A stretch of DNA of 64,000 nucleotides from Hyphomicrobiales bacterium (GTDB taxonomy: Bacteria; Pseudomonadota; Alphaproteobacteria; Rhizobiales; Devosiaceae): contig SEEL01000014.1 of NCBI GenBank assembly GCA_004144345.1, forward strand, positions 17,626-81,625, in the 5' to 3' direction. Below, one piece after another: positions 3 to 8,321 of the stretch. The notes below the pieces were generated by a model that ran no database searches, had not been told where the DNA came from, and worked only from the letters and a program-made list of their open reading frames with translations. The stretch's first letter is position 1, and every line of letters starts with the position of its first letter. A program made the translations under genes and the position numbers.

Positions 3-1625
3 CGCGACGACGTCATCATCGTCGCCTCCGTCTCCTGCATCTATGGCATCGGCTCGGTGGAAGACTACACCGCCATGACCTTCGACCTGCGCAAGGGCCA
101 GACCATCGACCAGCGCGAGCTCCTCCGCTCCCTGACGCAGCTCCAGTACAAGCGCGGCGACACCGGCTTCGTCCGCGGCACCTTCCGCGTCCGCGGCGAC
201 ACCGTCGAACTCTTCCCCGCCCACTATGAGGATGCCGCCTGGCGCATCACCCTGTTCGGCAACACCATCGAATCCATCGCCGAATTCGATCCGCTCACCG
301 GCAAGAAATCGTCCGACCTCATCTTCGTGCGCATCTTCGCCAACAGCCACTACGTCACGCCCCGCGCCACCCTCACCGGCGCCATCAAGCTGATCCGCGC
401 CGAACTCGCCGCGCGCCTCCAGGAGCTCAACGGCGCCGGCCGCTTCCTCGAAGCCCAGCGCCTCGAACAGCGCACTTTGTTCGATCTCGAAATGATGGAA
501 GCCACCGGCTCCTGCGCCGGCATCGAGAATTACTCGCGCTACTTCTCCGGCCGCAAACCCGGCGAGCCGCCGCCGACCCTGTTCGAATATCTCCCCGACA
601 ACGCCCTCGTCTTCATCGACGAAAGCCACGTCACCATCGGTCAGCTCGGCGCCATGTATCGCGGCGACCTTCGCCGCAAGGCCACCCTCGCCGAGTATGG
701 CTTCCGCCTGCCCTCGGCCATGGACAACCGCCCGCTCCGCTTCGAGGAGTGGAACGCCATGCGCCCGCAGACCATCTATGTCTCGGCCACCCCCGGCGCC
801 TGGGAACTCGAACAGGCCGGCGGCGTCTTCGCCGAACAGGTCATCCGCCCCACCGGCCTCACCGATCCCCCGGTCGAAATCCGCCCGGCCAAGACCCAGG
901 TCGATGACGTCGTCGACGAGATCCGCCAGACGACGAAAGCCGGCTACCGCACCCTCGTCACCGTCCTCACCAAGAAGATGGCGGAAGATCTCACCGAATA
1001 CATGCATGAGCAGGGCATCAAGGTCCGCTACATGCACTCCGACATCGACACCATCGAGCGCATCGAGATCATCCGCGATCTGCGCTTAGGCGCCTTCGAT
1101 GTGCTGGTGGGCATCAACCTCCTGCGCGAAGGCCTCGACATCCCCGAATGCGCCCTCGTCGCCATCCTCGACGCCGACAAGGAAGGCTTCCTGCGTTCAG
1201 AGACGTCCCTGATCCAGACCATCGGCCGCGCCGCGCGTAACGTCGACGGCAAGGTGATCCTCTATGCCGACCGCGAAACCGGCAGCATGGAACGCGCCCT
1301 CGCCGAAACCAACCGGCGTAGAGAGAAGCAGATCGCCTACAACGAGGCGAACGGCATTACACCGCAGAGCGTCAAGTCCAACATCAAGGAGATCGTCGAC
1401 AGCGTCTACGAAAAGGACCACGTCACGGTCTCGATCGGCAAGGACAAGGCTGGCAAAGAGCAAATCCAGGTCGGCGCCAACCTCCAGGCCGTCATCAAGG
1501 ACATGGAAAAGCAGATGCGTGAAGCGGCCACGAACCTCGAATTCGAACGCGCGGCAAGGCTACGCGACGAAATCAAGCGCCTGCGCGAAGCGGAATTGGA
1601 TGTGCTGGAGGGGAGTGGGGATTAG
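3..1625 (+). CDS. uvrB: Excinuclease ABC subunit B, 5'-truncated by the window edge
   Basis: Open frame from base 3 ([18 protein letters not shown]); helicase motifs [34 protein letters not shown]; C-terminal UVR coil [17 protein letters not shown]. Confidence 0.98.
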
Positions 1626-2218
1626 CTGGTCGAATTACCGAACTCATGCTGCCGCGCGTCTCGGTCGTCGATGCTCAGCGTTCGTCGAAAGTCGTCCCTA
1701 TTGCAATTGTAGCGATGACAAAAATTGGTAGTCTGATCGACACCGAAGCCATCGTCGTAAGTCACCAATCCCCAGACAAAGCAGTATGATTCGCCAGTGG
1801 CACCAATTGGCGGCGTGCCTCGTGCCATTGTTCCCCGCGCGCCGACAATCTGGCTTCCTCGACGGATCGATGGGATTGCGAAATCTTGTTTGTCGCCATC
1901 GTTCGACATCTCAATGCAGAGGACCCATCTCAAGTTTCTAGCAGGGAGGACCCCAGAGTTCACAATCGCTACGTGGCCAAGGAAGCGATTGGCCTCGCCA
2001 CGCCAAGGAGACAAACCTCTTGGCTCCACACTAACGTAGGCCCGATTCATGAAACGCGAATCTACAAATTGCTGGCGCGCCACAAGGACCAGCATGAACG
2101 TCGCCACGGCCAAGAGCGCCGTGGAAAGGGTCAACCACAGCGTATAGTACGTGAGTTGATCATTTTGTCCTGAAGGAACGTTCTTCCAGGCCACAATTAC
2201 AATTGCGACGAAAGCCAA
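1622..2218 (-). CDS. Hypothetical membrane-anchored protein; true start uncertain, possibly frameshifted from ATG 2256/2265
   Basis: 198-aa ORF with two N-terminal hydrophobic segments, low-GC codon usage, TTG start with no clear RBS. Confidence 0.65.
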
Positions 2219-2300
2219 GGCCCCAACTGCCAGTGCACTACGGACCAGCTTTTCATTTGTGCCATTCTATCCACGATCAGGTACGGCGTTCCGATAAGCT

Positions 2301-3329
2301 CTAGCGGGCCAGCCAAGCCCTGAATGAGGCGTCTAGGATTTCGGCGCGCTGATTATGCGACCAGTCATCGTTTACGCTCCGAGACGCTTGTCGATAAGCC
2401 GCGTAGTCTGTGTCCTCGCGGTTCAACTCTTTGTCCAAGTTCAGTTCCGACTGAAACTCCTCTAGAAACTGACGGAAAATTCCAAGGCGCTTTGCCGATT
2501 GGTCGCGGCAAACCCAATAGTAGACTGGTATCTGACCCTGCGACGAAAGAAGCGGATCTCGATTGCCAAAAACGCTGCGCATCTTGTCCAGTCCGGAAAG
2601 CGTCTTCTGGAATGCCACTTTAATCTGGCCCTCGTCGGCTTCGCGCACCATGTCGTCTAGCGAGACCTTTTTGGTATCTACAGGCCCTTCTGAAAGCTCA
2701 AATATTAGCAGCTTGGCTGCCGCGTTAAGGTTCTGACCGCGCTTCGTTTGATAGCGAACGCACTCTGCGAAGAATTCGTGTTCGGCAATCCGGCGAAGCA
2801 TCTTTGGCACAGGACCAATCATCGCATTTCGCTTCTCAGCGCCAGTTAGATTCGCGCCCTTGTTCAGCCGCACAAAGAGTTCGTTGATCTTCTCTAACTC
2901 GTCGGTAACGACATGCATGATCGGCATCGGATACTCTTCAATGACAGCCGCGACAGCCTCGTGCGATCTCTGCAGGTCCTTATAGTACAATCCCCTAAGA
3001 GCCAGATTTTCATTCTTTTGATACTGGAATTTTCTGCTCAGAGGATAATCGTTACTCAAGAATCCAAATATCGCTTCAATTCTCTGCTTTCCGTCAATAA
3101 CAGCAAACTGTAGGTTATCTTCGTTTATGACGCTCTTTATCGTCGTGAAATCCGCCAAGTATAGTTTTGGGATATCGTACTCGTTAAGTATTGAGTCGAT
3201 GAGGTACTGCTTATCCTCAAGCGACCAAATACCGCCAGAGCGCTGATACTCAGGCTCCATGTCGATACGGTTTCTTATGCTAAACCAGTATCTTGCGGAT
3301 TTTAGGTTTCTAGCCTGTACCTCAAACAT
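2301..3329 (-). CDS. DUF262 (GmrS/ParB-like) domain protein
   Basis: Motifs PEYQR..IW...KQYLIDSIL...IP, AVIDGKQRIEAI, ELFVRLNKG..LT.AEKRNA; start reassigned to ATG 3329, 1 nt after the FRG stop. Confidence 0.85.
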   Translation of the reverse strand: MFEVQARNLKSARYWFSIRNRIDMEPEYQRSGGIWSLEDKQYLIDSILNEYDIPKLYLADFTTIKSVINEDNLQFAVIDGKQRIEAIFGFLSNDYPLSRKFQYQKNENLALRGLYYKDLQRSHEAVAAVIEEYPMPIMHVVTDELEKINELFVRLNKGANLTGAEKRNAMIGPVPKMLRRIAEHEFFAECVRYQTKRGQNLNAAAKLLIFELSEGPVDTKKVSLDDMVREADEGQIKVAFQKTLSGLDKMRSVFGNRDPLLSSQGQIPVYYWVCRDQSAKRLGIFRQFLEEFQSELNLDKELNREDTDYAAYRQASRSVNDDWSHNQRAEILDASFRAWLAR

Positions 3330-3330
3330 G

Positions 3331-4128
3331 CTAATATCCGTACTTTCCGCGTATCTCGGTCGCAAGGCCATCCAAGTCGGGGAATACGCTTGAGTATGTT
3401 ACTCCATAGTGCTGCAAGTCGGCATACACCCCAAGGGCCGCGGTTGGTTTAATCTCAATCTTTGTCAGCGGCACATCAGTATTCCATGCTTTATGACCTT
3501 CACAAAATTGCTCCAGAGATTTCTTCTGCGGGCCAAATATAACGAACTTTCCGCGCTGGGCGTTTATCCTAGGGTTGTTGATGACACCCTCGATCCCGAG
3601 TGGCTCGGACCGACGACTCCCCGTGGCGAGAGGATGATACTGGGCAACAGTGGTGTCGTCTGTTGGGTAAACCAGTTGAGGCCCACTTATGTCGTGCAGC
3701 ATTCCCTCGTTCCATCGAGCGGGGTCGAGAACCCAGAGGACTGGCGGCTTAGCCTTGGGTCCGTTCTTGAAACTACTGAGAGCGAAAAAAAGCCCAACAA
3801 GGGGACTGGCGGTCCAGTCCAGCAGCCTCGTAGGAAGTCGATAGTGCTGCATCAGGAACAACTGATCCCACAAATCCACCCTAACCAAGCTATCGTACAT
3901 GGGAGAGCGGAAGTGAAAGTCCTTGTACAGCCGCGCCTCCTTGGCGGAGATGTCTGCTATGGGCGCATCTAGGCGATGCAGTCCTGGTGCGAGCACGTAG
4001 GAATTGCTGCTGTGTCCCCGGTACCACAGCTCTCTATCAGGCCTAAGCGCTCTAACCGCCTCGATTGAGTCGATCACTGATCGGAATGAGTCTGCAGTAA
4101 GGGTTTTAATATTGCTGTTCTTGGACAA
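3331..4128 (-). CDS. FRG-domain protein
   Basis: WYRGH near N-terminus, MQHYRLPTRLLDWTASPLVGLFFAL, NPRINAQRGKF, C-terminal GVTYSSVFPDLDGLA. Confidence 0.9.
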   Translation of the reverse strand: MSKNSNIKTLTADSFRSVIDSIEAVRALRPDRELWYRGHSSNSYVLAPGLHRLDAPIADISAKEARLYKDFHFRSPMYDSLVRVDLWDQLFLMQHYRLPTRLLDWTASPLVGLFFALSSFKNGPKAKPPVLWVLDPARWNEGMLHDISGPQLVYPTDDTTVAQYHPLATGSRRSEPLGIEGVINNPRINAQRGKFVIFGPQKKSLEQFCEGHKAWNTDVPLTKIEIKPTAALGVYADLQHYGVTYSSVFPDLDGLATEIRGKYGY

Positions 4129-4141
4129 TTCGGCCCCGAAA

Positions 4142-4188
4142 CATCTAGAATTCCAGACATTACTATCGTCCCAAGGGGATTCTAGATG
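4142..4188. repeat. Inverted repeat just upstream of the FRG start
   Basis: CATCTAGAAT (4142-4151) and ATTCTAGATG (4179-4188) are exact reverse complements; extendable to 13 bp with one G-U pair. Confidence 0.8.
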
Positions 4189-4436
4189 GAAGAGACCGGT
4201 TCCACTGGATTTTGGTGATTGTCGCGGCTCCTACACGAAGAGCAATCTGCCTGATCCCAACTCCACTATCGTCCGCGCCCCTTATCGAGTCACGGAATCC
4301 GCAGAACGTGAACTGCTCGCCCGTCGAGGCTGAAATCCCGCTACACTTCACAACAAGATTCCGGCAGAACCCACTGCCCCCATTCAGCAATCCAAGAAAT
4401 ATCCGAAAACTTATCCACGTCCCCCTGGACCGCCCG

Positions 4437-4442
4437 CATAAT
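4437..4442 (+). promoter_or_regulatory. Putative -10 element (CATAAT) for the structured RNA
   Basis: Ends 7 nt before G4449, the first base of the first stem; no convincing -35. Confidence 0.4.
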
Positions 4443-4448
4443 GCCCTC

Positions 4449-4850
4449 GCTGCCGCCGTATAGCCCGGCGTACCGACGAAGTGCGGGTGGCAGCGGCGGG
4501 GGCGGTGTGGTCGCACATCGTATGGTCCAGCCTTGGGGTACCCGTTGGTGAGCGACTGGGCGGTGTCAGAGACCGCGCCAGACCCGCAATAAGCCCTCGC
4601 GCGCCCCACTGGTTCCTCACATCCCGTCAGCGGCATCCCCCAGCGGGGGACCGGTCGAGCCGAGGCTCGGTTGGTCACAGCGCAGGGGTAAGCGCGGAGC
4701 GTCTCGAACGCTTCGCCAAAGCATCGGAGGCGCTCCGCGCTTCCGTCCGGGGACGCTTGTCCCCGGCAAGGGAACAACCGGGGTCGCAAGACTGCCGGAA
4801 ACCTCCGCACGCCCCTACGCAGGCGAGCTACATCGGATCACCCGCAGCGC
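4449..4850 (+). ncRNA. Candidate large structured non-coding RNA, family not recognised; 3' end approximate
   Basis: Stems 4449-4457/4486-4494, 4499-4504/4602-4607, 4505-4518, 4560-4576, 4650-4675, 4692-4705/4727-4740, 4747-4766, 4778-4798 (GCAA loop), 4680-4688/4812-4820; G-U pairs consistently on the + strand; no protein-like ORF. Confidence 0.6.
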
Positions 4851-4863
4851 ACAAACAATTCCC

Positions 4864-4889
4864 GCAACCCCTGCCCGGCCCTCGCGTTT
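4864..4889 (+). promoter_or_regulatory. Putative EcfG/sigmaT (general stress response) promoter
   Basis: GCAAC-N15-GCGTTT, one mismatch to the GGAAC-N15/16-gcgTT consensus, directly upstream of a general stress protein gene. Confidence 0.55.
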
Positions 4890-5809: not shown

Positions 5810-6175
5810 CAGCGGAACCTGCCGGTGCGGACCGGCAGCAGCAGGCGTGCGGCGCTCAGCGCCATGAAGGGGAGACAAAGAGCAAAAGCAATATCGGCCG
5901 TCAGCAAGATTTCCTCCGCAATAGATGTCCGCCACGCAGGATGCATGCCGGCCGAATCCCATTCATTGCGCAGGAGAACGCCCGGAACACGAATCCCATC
6001 ACCGAACGCAAATCGGCGGCCGTCCCGGTCTAGGCATCACCAGATCACCCTATGGTCCGGCATGACAGTAACTTGTGTGAATCGCGATGGTTCCATCCGG
6101 CCGCCGCGCCAAACTCCCCTTGCCCGCCAGCGGCTTGCCGCCCGTACACAATTTCATGAGCGGCCGGCAGCGCGC

Positions 6176-6811
6176 CTATTCGAGCGAGCGCAGATAAGCC
6201 ACGATCGCCGCCGCCTGCTCCGGCTCGAACGCGAATTCCGGCATGTCCGGATGGCCGCTCACCAGCCCTTCGACCAGCCCTTCCTCGAGATCGCCCACAT
6301 CATAGCGCTCATCCAGCGTACGGAACGGCGGCGCCGCCTCATGCGCGCTGGCATCGTCGCGGCCGATGGCGTGGCAGGCCCCGCAATAGGTCTCGACGAG
6401 CGTCTGGCCGAGCTGCAGTTCGACCTGCGCCGGTGTCTGGAAGGTCATGATGTACGCCACCACATCGGCGATATCGGCCTCGCCCTTCAGCCCGGAAAAG
6501 ATCATCCCCGTGCCCGGCTCGAAATGGCGCGGCTTGGCGATGAAGTCCGACACCGTTTCGGCCGTCCACACCAGCCCGCCATCGCCTGCCTCACGCAGCG
6601 CCGGGCTATACGGAAAATCCGCCACGCTCGCGGCGCGCCGGCCGAACAGGCCGGTCAGCACGGGCCCCTGCCGGTTGCGCGCCCCCTCGCCGATGTCGTG
6701 GCACAGCGCACAGCGCTCAAACACTTCGGCGCCCATGCCCACATCCTGCGCGGCCGCCGGGGCTGCCGCCAGCCCTGCCACCACCGCCATCATCGCCGCA
6801 AATCTGTACAT
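6176..6811 (-). CDS. Di-heme c-type cytochrome (cytochrome c2-like domain plus a second class I domain)
   Basis: Signal peptide; CALCH and CGACH; GPVLTGLFGRRA, GTGMIF, HPDMPEF. Confidence 0.9.
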   Translation of the reverse strand: MYRFAAMMAVVAGLAAAPAAAQDVGMGAEVFERCALCHDIGEGARNRQGPVLTGLFGRRAASVADFPYSPALREAGDGGLVWTAETVSDFIAKPRHFEPGTGMIFSGLKGEADIADVVAYIMTFQTPAQVELQLGQTLVETYCGACHAIGRDDASAHEAAPPFRTLDERYDVGDLEEGLVEGLVSGHPDMPEFAFEPEQAAAIVAYLRSLE

Positions 6812-6945
6812 CCGACACTCCTCGTCCGGCCGCAGCCTACCCGCCCGCCGCCGCCATGCCATTGATCCAGCGCAAATGCCAGCCGGCGGCATCGGGAGCC
6901 CAAGCTGCCGTCACCGCGTTAAAACCCCGTAACAAGGAGCCCTCC

Positions 6946-7173
6946 ATGTCCCGCCCCGAATCCGCCCATGTCACCGCGCTGAAGTCGTTCCGCGACCGCC
7001 TCGTCGACGCGCGCCGCGCCGCCGTGCTCGAGACCAATCTCGATACGGCCCGCCAGCGCTTCGCCGAGATCCAGTCCGCTCTTGCGCTGGTCGAGCGCGC
7101 CATCGAAAATGAACTCGACCTCACGCCCCTGCCCACGGTCGATGATCCCACCGCGCCCGAGCCGCAAGTCTAG
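6946..7173 (+). CDS. Small hypothetical protein
   Basis: RBS AAGGAG, 75-aa ORF. Confidence 0.65.
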   Translation: MSRPESAHVTALKSFRDRLVDARRAAVLETNLDTARQRFAEIQSALALVERAIENELDLTPLPTVDDPTAPEPQV

Positions 7174-7192
7174 CTGTCCCAGGAGATCGCCC

Positions 7193-7558
7193 ATGCGTCA
7201 CCCCACTCTCGCCCTTCTCGCCGCCGGTGCAGTGCTGCTCGCCGGCCTCGCCGCCGCCTCCCCGGCGCTCGCCGATCGTCCCACCGCCCGTTCCTCCGGT
7301 GTGCAGGCCGTCCACCTCTTCCCGCGCAGCGGCTCCGCCGTCATCGACAAGCTCCGGAACAATGAGCGGGTCTATCTCGACCGCTGCACCCGCAAGGCAC
7401 GCTGGTGCCTTGTCCGCCAGCTCGACGGCGGCCCCTCCGGCTGGGTTCCCGGCAGCTGGCTCATCGGCTCCCCGGCCAAGGTCCAGGTCACGCCGTTCGA
7501 ATTCTCCTTCGATCCGCTGGACCCGATTCCTAACAATTTTCCGAAAATCTGGAACTAA
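7193..7558 (+). CDS. Secreted SH3b-like domain protein
   Basis: RBS AGGAG, signal peptide, C.....WCLV......SGWV.GSWL. Confidence 0.7.
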   Translation: MRHPTLALLAAGAVLLAGLAAASPALADRPTARSSGVQAVHLFPRSGSAVIDKLRNNERVYLDRCTRKARWCLVRQLDGGPSGWVPGSWLIGSPAKVQVTPFEFSFDPLDPIPNNFPKIWN

Positions 7559-7646
7559 ACGGCCGCGTCAGCTTCGGTTCAGCCAGACCGGAATAGCGTT
7601 CGGGTCAAGGCAAGCGATTGCCCGCTCAACGCGAAAGGAATCTGAA

Positions 7647-8000
7647 ATGGCTCTTTCCCTGCTGAAGACCGGCGCCCTTGCCGCCACCGTGCTCGTCCTG
7701 TCCGTCAGCGGCGCCTTCGCCGCCACCTACGGCTATGTGAACTACGACACCAAGGTCAAAAAGACCTGGTCGTCCAACTCCCCCACCGTCGAGTGGGTCG
7801 AGGAAGGCGACTACGTCAAGGTGATCAACTACACCAACAAGAATGGCGGCTGGTTCCGCATCGACCCGCCCGGCCCGAACAATGCCGGCTGGGTGAAGAA
7901 GTCGGCCATCGATATCGATGACGACTATGATTACGATCCGAAGCCCGGCGTGCAGTTCTGCTTCACCGGCCCGCTCGGTTACGTCTGCATCAACCAGTAA
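7647..8000 (+). CDS. Secreted SH3b-like domain protein
   Basis: RBS AAAGGAA, signal peptide, GDYVKV...GWFRI.....GWVKKSAI, C-terminal FCFTGPLGYVC. Confidence 0.7.
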   Translation: MALSLLKTGALAATVLVLSVSGAFAATYGYVNYDTKVKKTWSSNSPTVEWVEEGDYVKVINYTNKNGGWFRIDPPGPNNAGWVKKSAIDIDDDYDYDPKPGVQFCFTGPLGYVCINQ

Positions 8001-8022
8001 GCCGACCGGTTCCCCTTACGCG

Positions 8023-8046
8023 CGCCGGCCTCCCGCGAGGCCGGCG
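8023..8046 (+). terminator. GC-rich hairpin, possible terminator
   Basis: CGCCGGCCTC/GAGGCCGGCG 10-bp stem after the stop at 8000; weak U-tract. Confidence 0.5.
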
Positions 8047-8096
8047 TTGCCGTTTGCCGGTCAAGCTCCTATCTTTTCGGGCAACGGAGACACGCC

Positions 8097-8321
8097 ATGG
8101 CCGAACAGGGCACCAAACCCTACCTCAAGCTCGCTTCCACTCTGGTGCTTTTGGGCATCGGCCTGTTCAGCCTCGAACAGTTCGGCCTCAGCCGCCTTGC
8201 CGGCCCGAACGGCAGCACGCATCTCGACGGCACCTTGCTGTCCATCCTCGTGCTGGCCCCCCTCGCCCTCGTGCTGGCCGGGGTGCTCACCTTCATCGTC
8301 GGCAAGATAAGGCGGCTCTAG
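8097..8321 (+). CDS. Small two-helix membrane protein
   Basis: RBS GGAG; two hydrophobic segments. Confidence 0.7.
   Translation: MAEQGTKPYLKLASTLVLLGIGLFSLEQFGLSRLAGPNGSTHLDGTLLSILVLAPLALVLAGVLTFIVGKIRRL

Follow-up and report, generated by a model that had tools for sequence, protein, structure and literature searches.

A conserved FRG–DUF262 gene pair in a low-GC islet of a Hyphomicrobiales bacterium, a candidate two-gene anti-phage module

The stretch of DNA analysed here (64,000 nt; hereafter the window) belongs to a Hyphomicrobiales bacterium of the Devosiaceae (NCBI GenBank assembly GCA_004144345.1, contig SEEL01000014.1, positions 17,626 to 81,625 of the forward strand), and our subject is a pair of adjacent genes near its beginning, which encode a protein with an FRG domain and a protein with a DUF262 domain. 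The window begins within uvrB (plus strand, ending at 1625), and core-looking genes are found again from about position 4888. Between these two landmarks lie three open reading frames (ORFs) on the minus strand, all in DNA of markedly lower guanine-plus-cytosine (GC) content: the FRG gene (3331..4128; GC 0.533), the DUF262 gene (2301..3329; GC 0.491) and an ORF of 198 amino acids (GC 0.536), compared with 0.645 for the whole window. They occupy a low-GC islet (1600..4400), bounded by uvrB and by a high-GC non-coding stretch, within which the GC content of 200-nt bins (1600–4399) varies from 0.38 to 0.57. The FRG gene exists in one copy only in its own genome, and the pair is flanked by uvrB on one side and by a general-stress-type gene on the other.

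The FRG gene (265 amino acids, TTG start) comes first and the DUF262 gene (342 amino acids) second, the two being joined by the string TAG-C-ATG (3327..3333, minus strand), i.e., the FRG stop codon at 3333–3331, a single C at 3330 and the DUF262 ATG at 3329–3327. An upstream ATG at 3371, the start codon under the longest-ORF option, was tried as the DUF262 start and ruled out, since the 84 homologues of the protein begin with "MFxV" (F2 being kept in at least 90% of them in the alignment). Because the homologues begin in this way, 3329 is the true start and the 1-nt spacing stands. The earlier note on this DNA, made from its letters and a list of its ORFs, had described the two genes as separated by one base and as both low in GC, and had singled out the motifs WYRG, QHY and DGKQR. 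The spacing is as it said, with a start now fixed by the family consensus, the GC values agree with it, and the three motifs are all present, each at alignment columns that do not vary within its family.

The product of the first gene matches the Pfam family FRG (PF08867, 5e-22) and 14 of the PADLOC models for PDC-S15, the best of them (PDLC04938) at 4.1e-43 over nearly its full length; altogether, 2306 homologues were found. The WYRG motif (residues 35–38; 4015..4026, minus strand) contributes three residues, W35, R37 and G38, that are invariant in an alignment of 77 homologues, while the QHY motif (residues 94–96; 3841..3849, minus strand) opens the invariant block MQH..PTRLLDW, in which Q94, H95, T100, R101, D104 and W105 do not vary in the same alignment. 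The AlphaFold2 (AF2) model of the protein is of high confidence (mean predicted local distance difference test score, pLDDT, 91.9). When it was compared with the PDB using Foldseek, the top long alignments were to ADP-ribosyltransferases (ARTs), first ParT and MbcT of the RES type, with PltA (pertussis-like) and the CARDS toxin after them (E 0.75–7), and a comparison with viral models returned no significant match. Neither Pfam nor Foldseek revealed a recognisable nuclease motif or fold.

The proposal that Frg acts as an effector is said to have been made first by Burroughs and Aravind in 2020 (J Bacteriol). Work from the Aravind laboratory counts Frg among the ART-superfamily proteins, beside RES, and predicts for it an antiviral effector role and possibly an NADase activity (PMC9503650), which agrees with the tentative statement of the earlier note that the domain had been linked to NAD+-using conflict effectors. 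From this placement we infer that the FRG protein is an ART-superfamily enzyme, an assignment with which our structural model is weakly consistent. PDC-S15 is also among the high-impact features of one Pseudomonas aeruginosa phage-infectivity classifier, an association that is correlational only.

The product of the second gene matches the Pfam family GmrSD_N (PF03235, 1.8e-16) and consists of a ParB-like nucleoside triphosphatase (NTPase) domain followed by a helical C-terminal domain. Its predicted nucleotide-binding motif, DGKQR (residues 79–83; 3081..3095, minus strand), is intact: among the 84 homologues, D79, G80, Q82 and R83 never vary, and K81 is kept in at least 90%. It is the counterpart of the DGQQR motif, whose Q and R are needed for defence in a GmrSD-like protein (10.1101/2024.01.29.577857), and the DUF262 domain is required in GmrSD-like enzymes, in Menshen and in Dazbog. 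The AF2 model (pLDDT 93.6) is all-helical from about residue 185 to residue 342, and because this second half is entirely helical, the protein has no His-Me finger. Moreover, Pfam detects no DUF1524 or other nuclease family in the DUF262 or the FRG protein and no DUF1524 in their neighbours, and NCBIfam yields no match for either of the two proteins, so that the earlier description of a DUF262 protein devoid of a DUF1524/HNH tail is borne out. Among PADLOC models, the best match is Menshen NsnA (8.8e-27, protein residues 33–243 against positions 62–260 of a profile of 385), followed by a weaker and partial match to PD-T4-2_A (8.2e-15, residues 33–217). Foldseek places BrxU (7p9k) first (E 2e-3, probability 0.97), followed by structures of ParB, Noc and KorB with CDP or CTP, and a sequence search against the PDB gave nothing useful (0.011 to a DUF262 chain). 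Taken together, domain matches and model describe a nuclease-less protein with a predicted NTPase domain of the ParB/GmrS type. The usual length of such partners is about 350 amino acids; in two Pseudomonas loci (L035 and L039, at about 6807–8250) the DUF262 partner reaches about 480, which suggests that these versions carry an extra C-terminal domain.

The taxonomic reach of the pair was examined in a set of 80 loci from other species, those whose FRG was the best match, drawn from contigs of one genome per species. This set spans more than 10 phyla and includes Alpha-, Beta- and Gammaproteobacteria, Myxococcota, Verrucomicrobiota, Bacteroidota, Nitrospirota, Acidobacteriota, Actinomycetota, Chloroflexota, Planctomycetota, Gemmatimonadota and Cyanobacteria. 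A tblastn search with the DUF262 protein of the window found a same-strand homologue directly 3' of FRG in 65 of the 80 loci, and six of the exceptions have a more divergent GmrSD_N protein at the same position; with a profile search, a DUF262 gene on the same strand directly follows FRG in 72 of the 80. In the 66 loci where the distance from stop to start could be measured, its median is 2 nt; 60 of them fall between −11 and +20, and 20 pairs overlap (by −4, −1 or −8). Because the spacing is so tight across these 66 loci, abutting or overlapping genes are a trait of the family, and the tight junction of the window is no coincidence.

The association also holds in the reverse direction. A sample of 400 genomes, spread evenly over the same class, yielded just three full-length matches to this DUF262 subfamily (E ≤ 1e-53; genomes G056, G147 and G021), and these three adjoin the three best FRG matches of the whole sample, while weaker matches to either protein belong to other subfamilies and are unpaired. 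The prevalence of the pair in this sample is about 1%. Separate protein searches with the two proteins likewise converged on shared organisms and contigs (Mesorhizobium, Rhizobium, Agrobacterium, Stappia and Thalassospira). Moreover, the two proteins diverge together: over 60 loci, their pairwise identities are correlated with r = 0.78 (a value reached in 0 of 2000 permutations, and to which shared host phylogeny contributes), and in 32 of the 60 cases both proteins have their nearest neighbour at one and the same locus. FRG and DUF262 therefore form a conserved, co-inherited two-gene unit and not a local accident, and the joint conservation that had been named as a check on the pair is found both across phyla and reciprocally within the class.

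These observations bear on the simplest alternative, in which the genes are adjacent without a joint function, being either unrelated or an FRG gene followed by a housekeeping ParB-like protein for DNA segregation or regulation. Proteins of the ParB fold do have roles outside defence, with ParB, Noc and KorB all among the Foldseek matches of our DUF262 protein, and housekeeping genes flank the pair in the window. Nevertheless, reciprocal co-occurrence across phyla, tight junctions and co-divergence are at odds with chance adjacency, as are the patchy distribution at about 1% and the carriage on plasmids and between insertion sequence (IS) copies detailed below, and we regard this explanation as very improbable.

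The carriage on mobile DNA is most direct in a plasmid collection, in which both genes stand side by side on 20 Ralstonia megaplasmids and on one plasmid of Hymenobacter. The pair is near-identical in sequence across the 20 megaplasmids, and on one of them, from Ralstonia solanacearum (CP052129.1, locus L082, 3032–8784), genes for IS5-family transposases stand on both sides of it in an arrangement like that of a composite transposon. Fifty-one Klebsiella plasmids, from a match set that is mostly conjugative, encode a more distant FRG subfamily; none of these 51 has a match to the DUF262 protein of the window at E ≤ 1e-20, and the partner of the Klebsiella FRG, if it has any, is on sequence grounds different from ours. 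Distant FRG homologues also occur in the genomes of P2-like and other coliphages. One of them, gp44 of Peduovirus P2_2H1 (locus L084, NC_049386.1, 320–1684), is a hypothetical protein of 454 amino acids that combines a distant FRG domain (27% identity) with extra sequence, and others were matched in the Escherichia phages Tritos and PhiR11_1. The gp44 gene is located at the right end of the phage genome, a position that in P2-like phages we take to be a known hotspot for phage-borne defence genes.

In the surveyed loci, the pair turns up in highly diverse surroundings. As many as 109 Pfam families are represented among its 121 immediate neighbours, no conserved third gene exists among the immediate neighbours in the 66 other loci, and many insertions lie between housekeeping genes (e.g., between a RidA-like gene and carB in Mesorhizobium); on one metagenome contig, the pair is beside parC and recO, with a gene for a ParD antitoxin and a GIY-YIG gene also close. 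The immediate neighbours include C5-methylases (4), Eco29kI (2), DpnI (1), type I S subunits (2), ResIII (2) and Fic (2), and a C5-methylase is found within 6 kb of the pair in 7 of the 80 loci, the pair of the window having none near it. Neighbours of the restriction or defence type are over-represented, yet they concern a minority of loci. Hence, of the two parts of the earlier expectation that FRG and DUF262 would co-occur in defence islands, the co-occurrence is found, whereas a defence-island setting is lacking in most neighbourhoods.

This neighbourhood is what a restriction-like system would lead one to expect in part of the loci. In such a system, DUF262 would recognise modified or foreign DNA and FRG would act on that same DNA, either as a nuclease of a new kind or by ADP-ribosylating it in the manner of DarT, with no depletion of NAD+. 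Those DUF262 proteins whose function is known do detect modified DNA and direct a domain that cuts DNA, BrxU is the closest structural counterpart of the partner, and the excess of C5-methylase and restriction genes near the pair (the 7 loci above) favours this explanation in a subset. The absence of a recognisable nuclease motif or fold in FRG speaks against it, as do the lack of a methylase nearby in most loci, the window included, and the placement of Frg among NAD+-processing clades of the ART superfamily (PMC9503650). We therefore consider a restriction-like action quite unlikely.

The composition of the pair was then set against the known systems in which a DUF262 protein takes part. Menshen, made up of NsnA, NsnB and NsnC, was reportedly described by Millman et al. 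in 2022. Our DUF262 protein has the architecture of NsnA, in which a helical domain comes after ParB-DUF262, and NsnA is its best PADLOC match; the other two components are an ABC ATPase (NsnB, AAA_15/DUF3696) and an inPIN-nuclease (NsnC), whereas the window has a single FRG gene upstream instead. No ATPase or PIN-like gene is present in the flanks of the pair in the window (FRG, the 198-amino-acid ORF, uvrB), and none is conserved in the 66 other loci. The NsnA architecture (ParB-DUF262 plus ParBDB) has been proposed as the DNA sensor of Menshen (PMC12065111). PD-T4-2 of E. coli, with a DUF262 protein A and a HEPN protein B (Vassallo et al. 2022, summarised in PMC10952713), is likewise a two-gene system that couples a nuclease-less DUF262 protein to a separate effector protein, but the partner in the window is FRG and the effector gene comes first; Pfam finds no HEPN family in FRG, in the 198-amino-acid ORF or in an upstream ORF of 215 amino acids. 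GmrSD, BrxU and SspE, type IV and phosphorothioate-sensing enzymes of the DUF262-DUF1524 build, share with our protein the ParB-like NTPase domain at the N-terminus and its motif of the DGQQR type, and BrxU is its best structural match, but the DUF1524 nuclease (His-Me/HNH) that they carry in the same protein or in a GmrD partner is absent from the two proteins and their neighbours; the output here would be a separate protein. Finally, neither protein of the pair has a PADLOC match to Dazbog DzbA or DzbB at E ≤ 0.1, provided that PADLOC-DB 2.0.0 includes models for these as it does for the sister system Menshen.

Because HEPN, NsnB/NsnC and DUF1524 are absent and no Dazbog match exists, the pair is not a member of PD-T4-2, Menshen, GmrSD or Dazbog. 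By analogy, the pair resembles the systems that combine a nuclease-less DUF262 sensor with a separate effector (PD-T4-2, Menshen and Dazbog). No named system of PADLOC has the composition FRG plus DUF262, as the earlier note had supposed when it knew of none, yet the FRG effector half is not new, since PADLOC already catalogues FRG as PDC-S15. The FRG protein of the window matches 14 models of that entry, which is defined as a single gene, whereas FRG here and in the 72 related loci is tied to DUF262.

Not all FRG genes of the survey are paired. According to the profile search, 8 of the 80 loci have no DUF262 gene within 6 kb of FRG (L020, L034, L048, L050, L051, L057, L071 and L077, with FRG at about 6001–6800 in most). 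These solo FRG proteins keep all core invariants, namely those of the WYRG motif (W35, R37 and G38) together with R52, E64, Q94, H95, T100, R101, D104, W105, N140, R187 and Q191. In seven of the eight, moreover, shared substitutions are seen where the paired clade is fixed: S75 is replaced by A or C, G181 by P, and N184 and P109 are variable. On this basis, S75, P109, G181 and N184 may be candidate positions for an interface between FRG and DUF262. Because the solo proteins keep every core invariant, FRG appears able to exist without DUF262, and it has the look of the core enzyme of the pair. The earlier note had left DUF262 as either a sensor or an antitoxin; an intact solo FRG argues against an obligatory antitoxin and agrees better with a sensor or activator.

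The same loci weigh on a second rival, a toxin–antitoxin or addiction module, in which FRG would be a constitutively toxic ART-like enzyme and DUF262 its proteinaceous antitoxin, so that the module would stabilise mobile DNA and sense no phage. At face value, several traits of the pair agree with such a role: it is a compact cassette of overlapping or abutting genes, it is found on plasmids and between IS copies, and genes for ParD-type antitoxins or for toxins adjoin it in some loci. Moreover, the closest structural matches of FRG, weak as they are, are the toxins ParT and MbcT of toxin–antitoxin systems (ParT-ParS and MbcT-MbcA), with E 0.75–1.7 and template modelling (TM) scores of 0.22–0.36, none of them significant, but the Xre/ParS-type antitoxin of these RES-type pairs is absent beside FRG. 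The gene order is also the reverse of that expected, the putative toxin gene being first; in pairs of the RES-Xre type, the antitoxin gene usually leads. Furthermore, an NTPase of 342 amino acids whose nucleotide-binding motif is invariant greatly exceeds a neutralising antitoxin in complexity, and the 8 loci with an intact FRG and no DUF262 within 6 kb are hard to reconcile with a toxin in need of neutralisation. An addiction module thus seems rather unlikely.

The reading that we retain is that the pair constitutes a horizontally mobile, unnamed two-gene module of anti-phage defence, of the abortive-infection type, in which DUF262 would switch on FRG and FRG would exert an NAD+-based chemistry; judged from the sequence evidence, we hold it to be somewhat probable on balance. 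Briefly, the DUF262 protein, with its ParB/GmrS-type NTPase domain and ParBDB-like helical domain, would sense invading or modified DNA, binding both DNA and a nucleoside triphosphate and working as a nucleotide-driven switch. Once engaged, it would license FRG, which would thus take the place held elsewhere by the DUF1524 nuclease, by the HEPN protein of PD-T4-2 or by NsnB and NsnC of Menshen as the output of the system. The licensed FRG, as a putative ART-superfamily enzyme, would then either deplete NAD+ or ADP-ribosylate a target. The defence role, the direction of control from DUF262 to FRG and the chemistry of FRG are all predictions of this scheme.

Several points count against it. In the window, no other defence gene lies near the pair, and most of its neighbourhoods elsewhere are not defence islands. 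Shared host phylogeny may explain part of the co-divergence of the two proteins. Regarding the chemistry, the Foldseek matches of FRG are all non-significant (E ≥ 0.75, TM ≤ 0.36), and a sequence search against the PDB gives it no relative of solved structure, the best match (E 0.17) being irrelevant. PDC-S15 itself stands in PADLOC as an uncharacterised single-gene candidate only. Finally, as for novelty, our literature search found no paper in which FRG appears together with DUF262, and an earlier description is possible.

The islet and its surroundings contain a few other features. The ORF of 198 amino acids (1622..2218, minus strand), which has a hydrophobic N-terminus, begins 82 nt past the DUF262 stop codon and ends in a 4-nt overlap with the uvrB stop. 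It has no family match in Pfam, PADLOC or NCBIfam, and its approximately 40 homologues, all unnamed and nearly all metagenomic (best identity 60%), make it a small orphan family. As no homologue of it stands beside the pair in the 80 other loci, it was ruled out as a third component and is viewed as a passenger of the same low-GC islet, outside the conserved pair. On the other side, the ORF of 215 amino acids upstream of FRG (4163–4810) was also tried, has no family match in Pfam and was taken as non-coding. The 760 nt that separate the FRG start from the following core gene (4129–4887) are without a credible gene, and their GC content climbs to 0.66–0.70; this region contains a hairpin with 24-nt arms (4690–4713 and 4719–4742, 83% complementary), and in the same region Rfam returns only chance matches to miRNA families (E 0.66–0.81) and ARAGORN no tmRNA.

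Closer to the pair, a 13-nt inverted repeat (4142..4188; CATCTAGAATTCC and GGGATTCTAGATG, separated by a 21-nt spacer and complementary at 12 of 13 positions) was revealed by the fold of 4129–4260, 14–60 nt 5' of the FRG start. The overall fold energy of 4129–4260 is no better than that of shuffled sequences; from its sequence and position, the repeat could be an operator for the pair. Scans for promoters and terminators gave nothing above shuffles. In the 91 nt 3' of the DUF262 stop, no attC-type hairpin was found, and the fold is again no better than shuffles (z +0.67 and +1.57 for the two strands). Searches for tRNA, tmRNA and Rfam families around the islet were negative, no integrase lies near the pair in the window, and the search for direct repeats on either side, the expected mark of an insertion, returned only short matches at chance level.

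What the pair would mean follows from its two halves. DUF262 is a recurring sensor module of bacterial immunity, whose outputs have so far been nucleases or RNases, and an FRG partner would add a different output chemistry, probably based on NAD+. The FRG domain has been flagged as PDC-S15 with no mechanism attached, and the pair would give a first experimental handle on it; a unit of 1.8 kb that is found in many phyla and on plasmids, with both proteins confidently modelled, is moreover an easy and well-defined target. The single-gene definition of PDC-S15 in PADLOC omits, in this clade of FRG, a partner that looks obligate. In its boldest form, the proposal is that FRG–DUF262 is a widespread, unnamed anti-phage system in which a ParB-type, DNA-reading nucleotide switch directly licenses an ART-fold enzyme that consumes NAD+ or ADP-ribosylates its target, a possibility that we put forward tentatively and with more doubt than confidence. 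If this is true, ParB/CTPase-like sensing would for the first time be linked to NAD+-based immunity, and the FRG domain would receive its first function.

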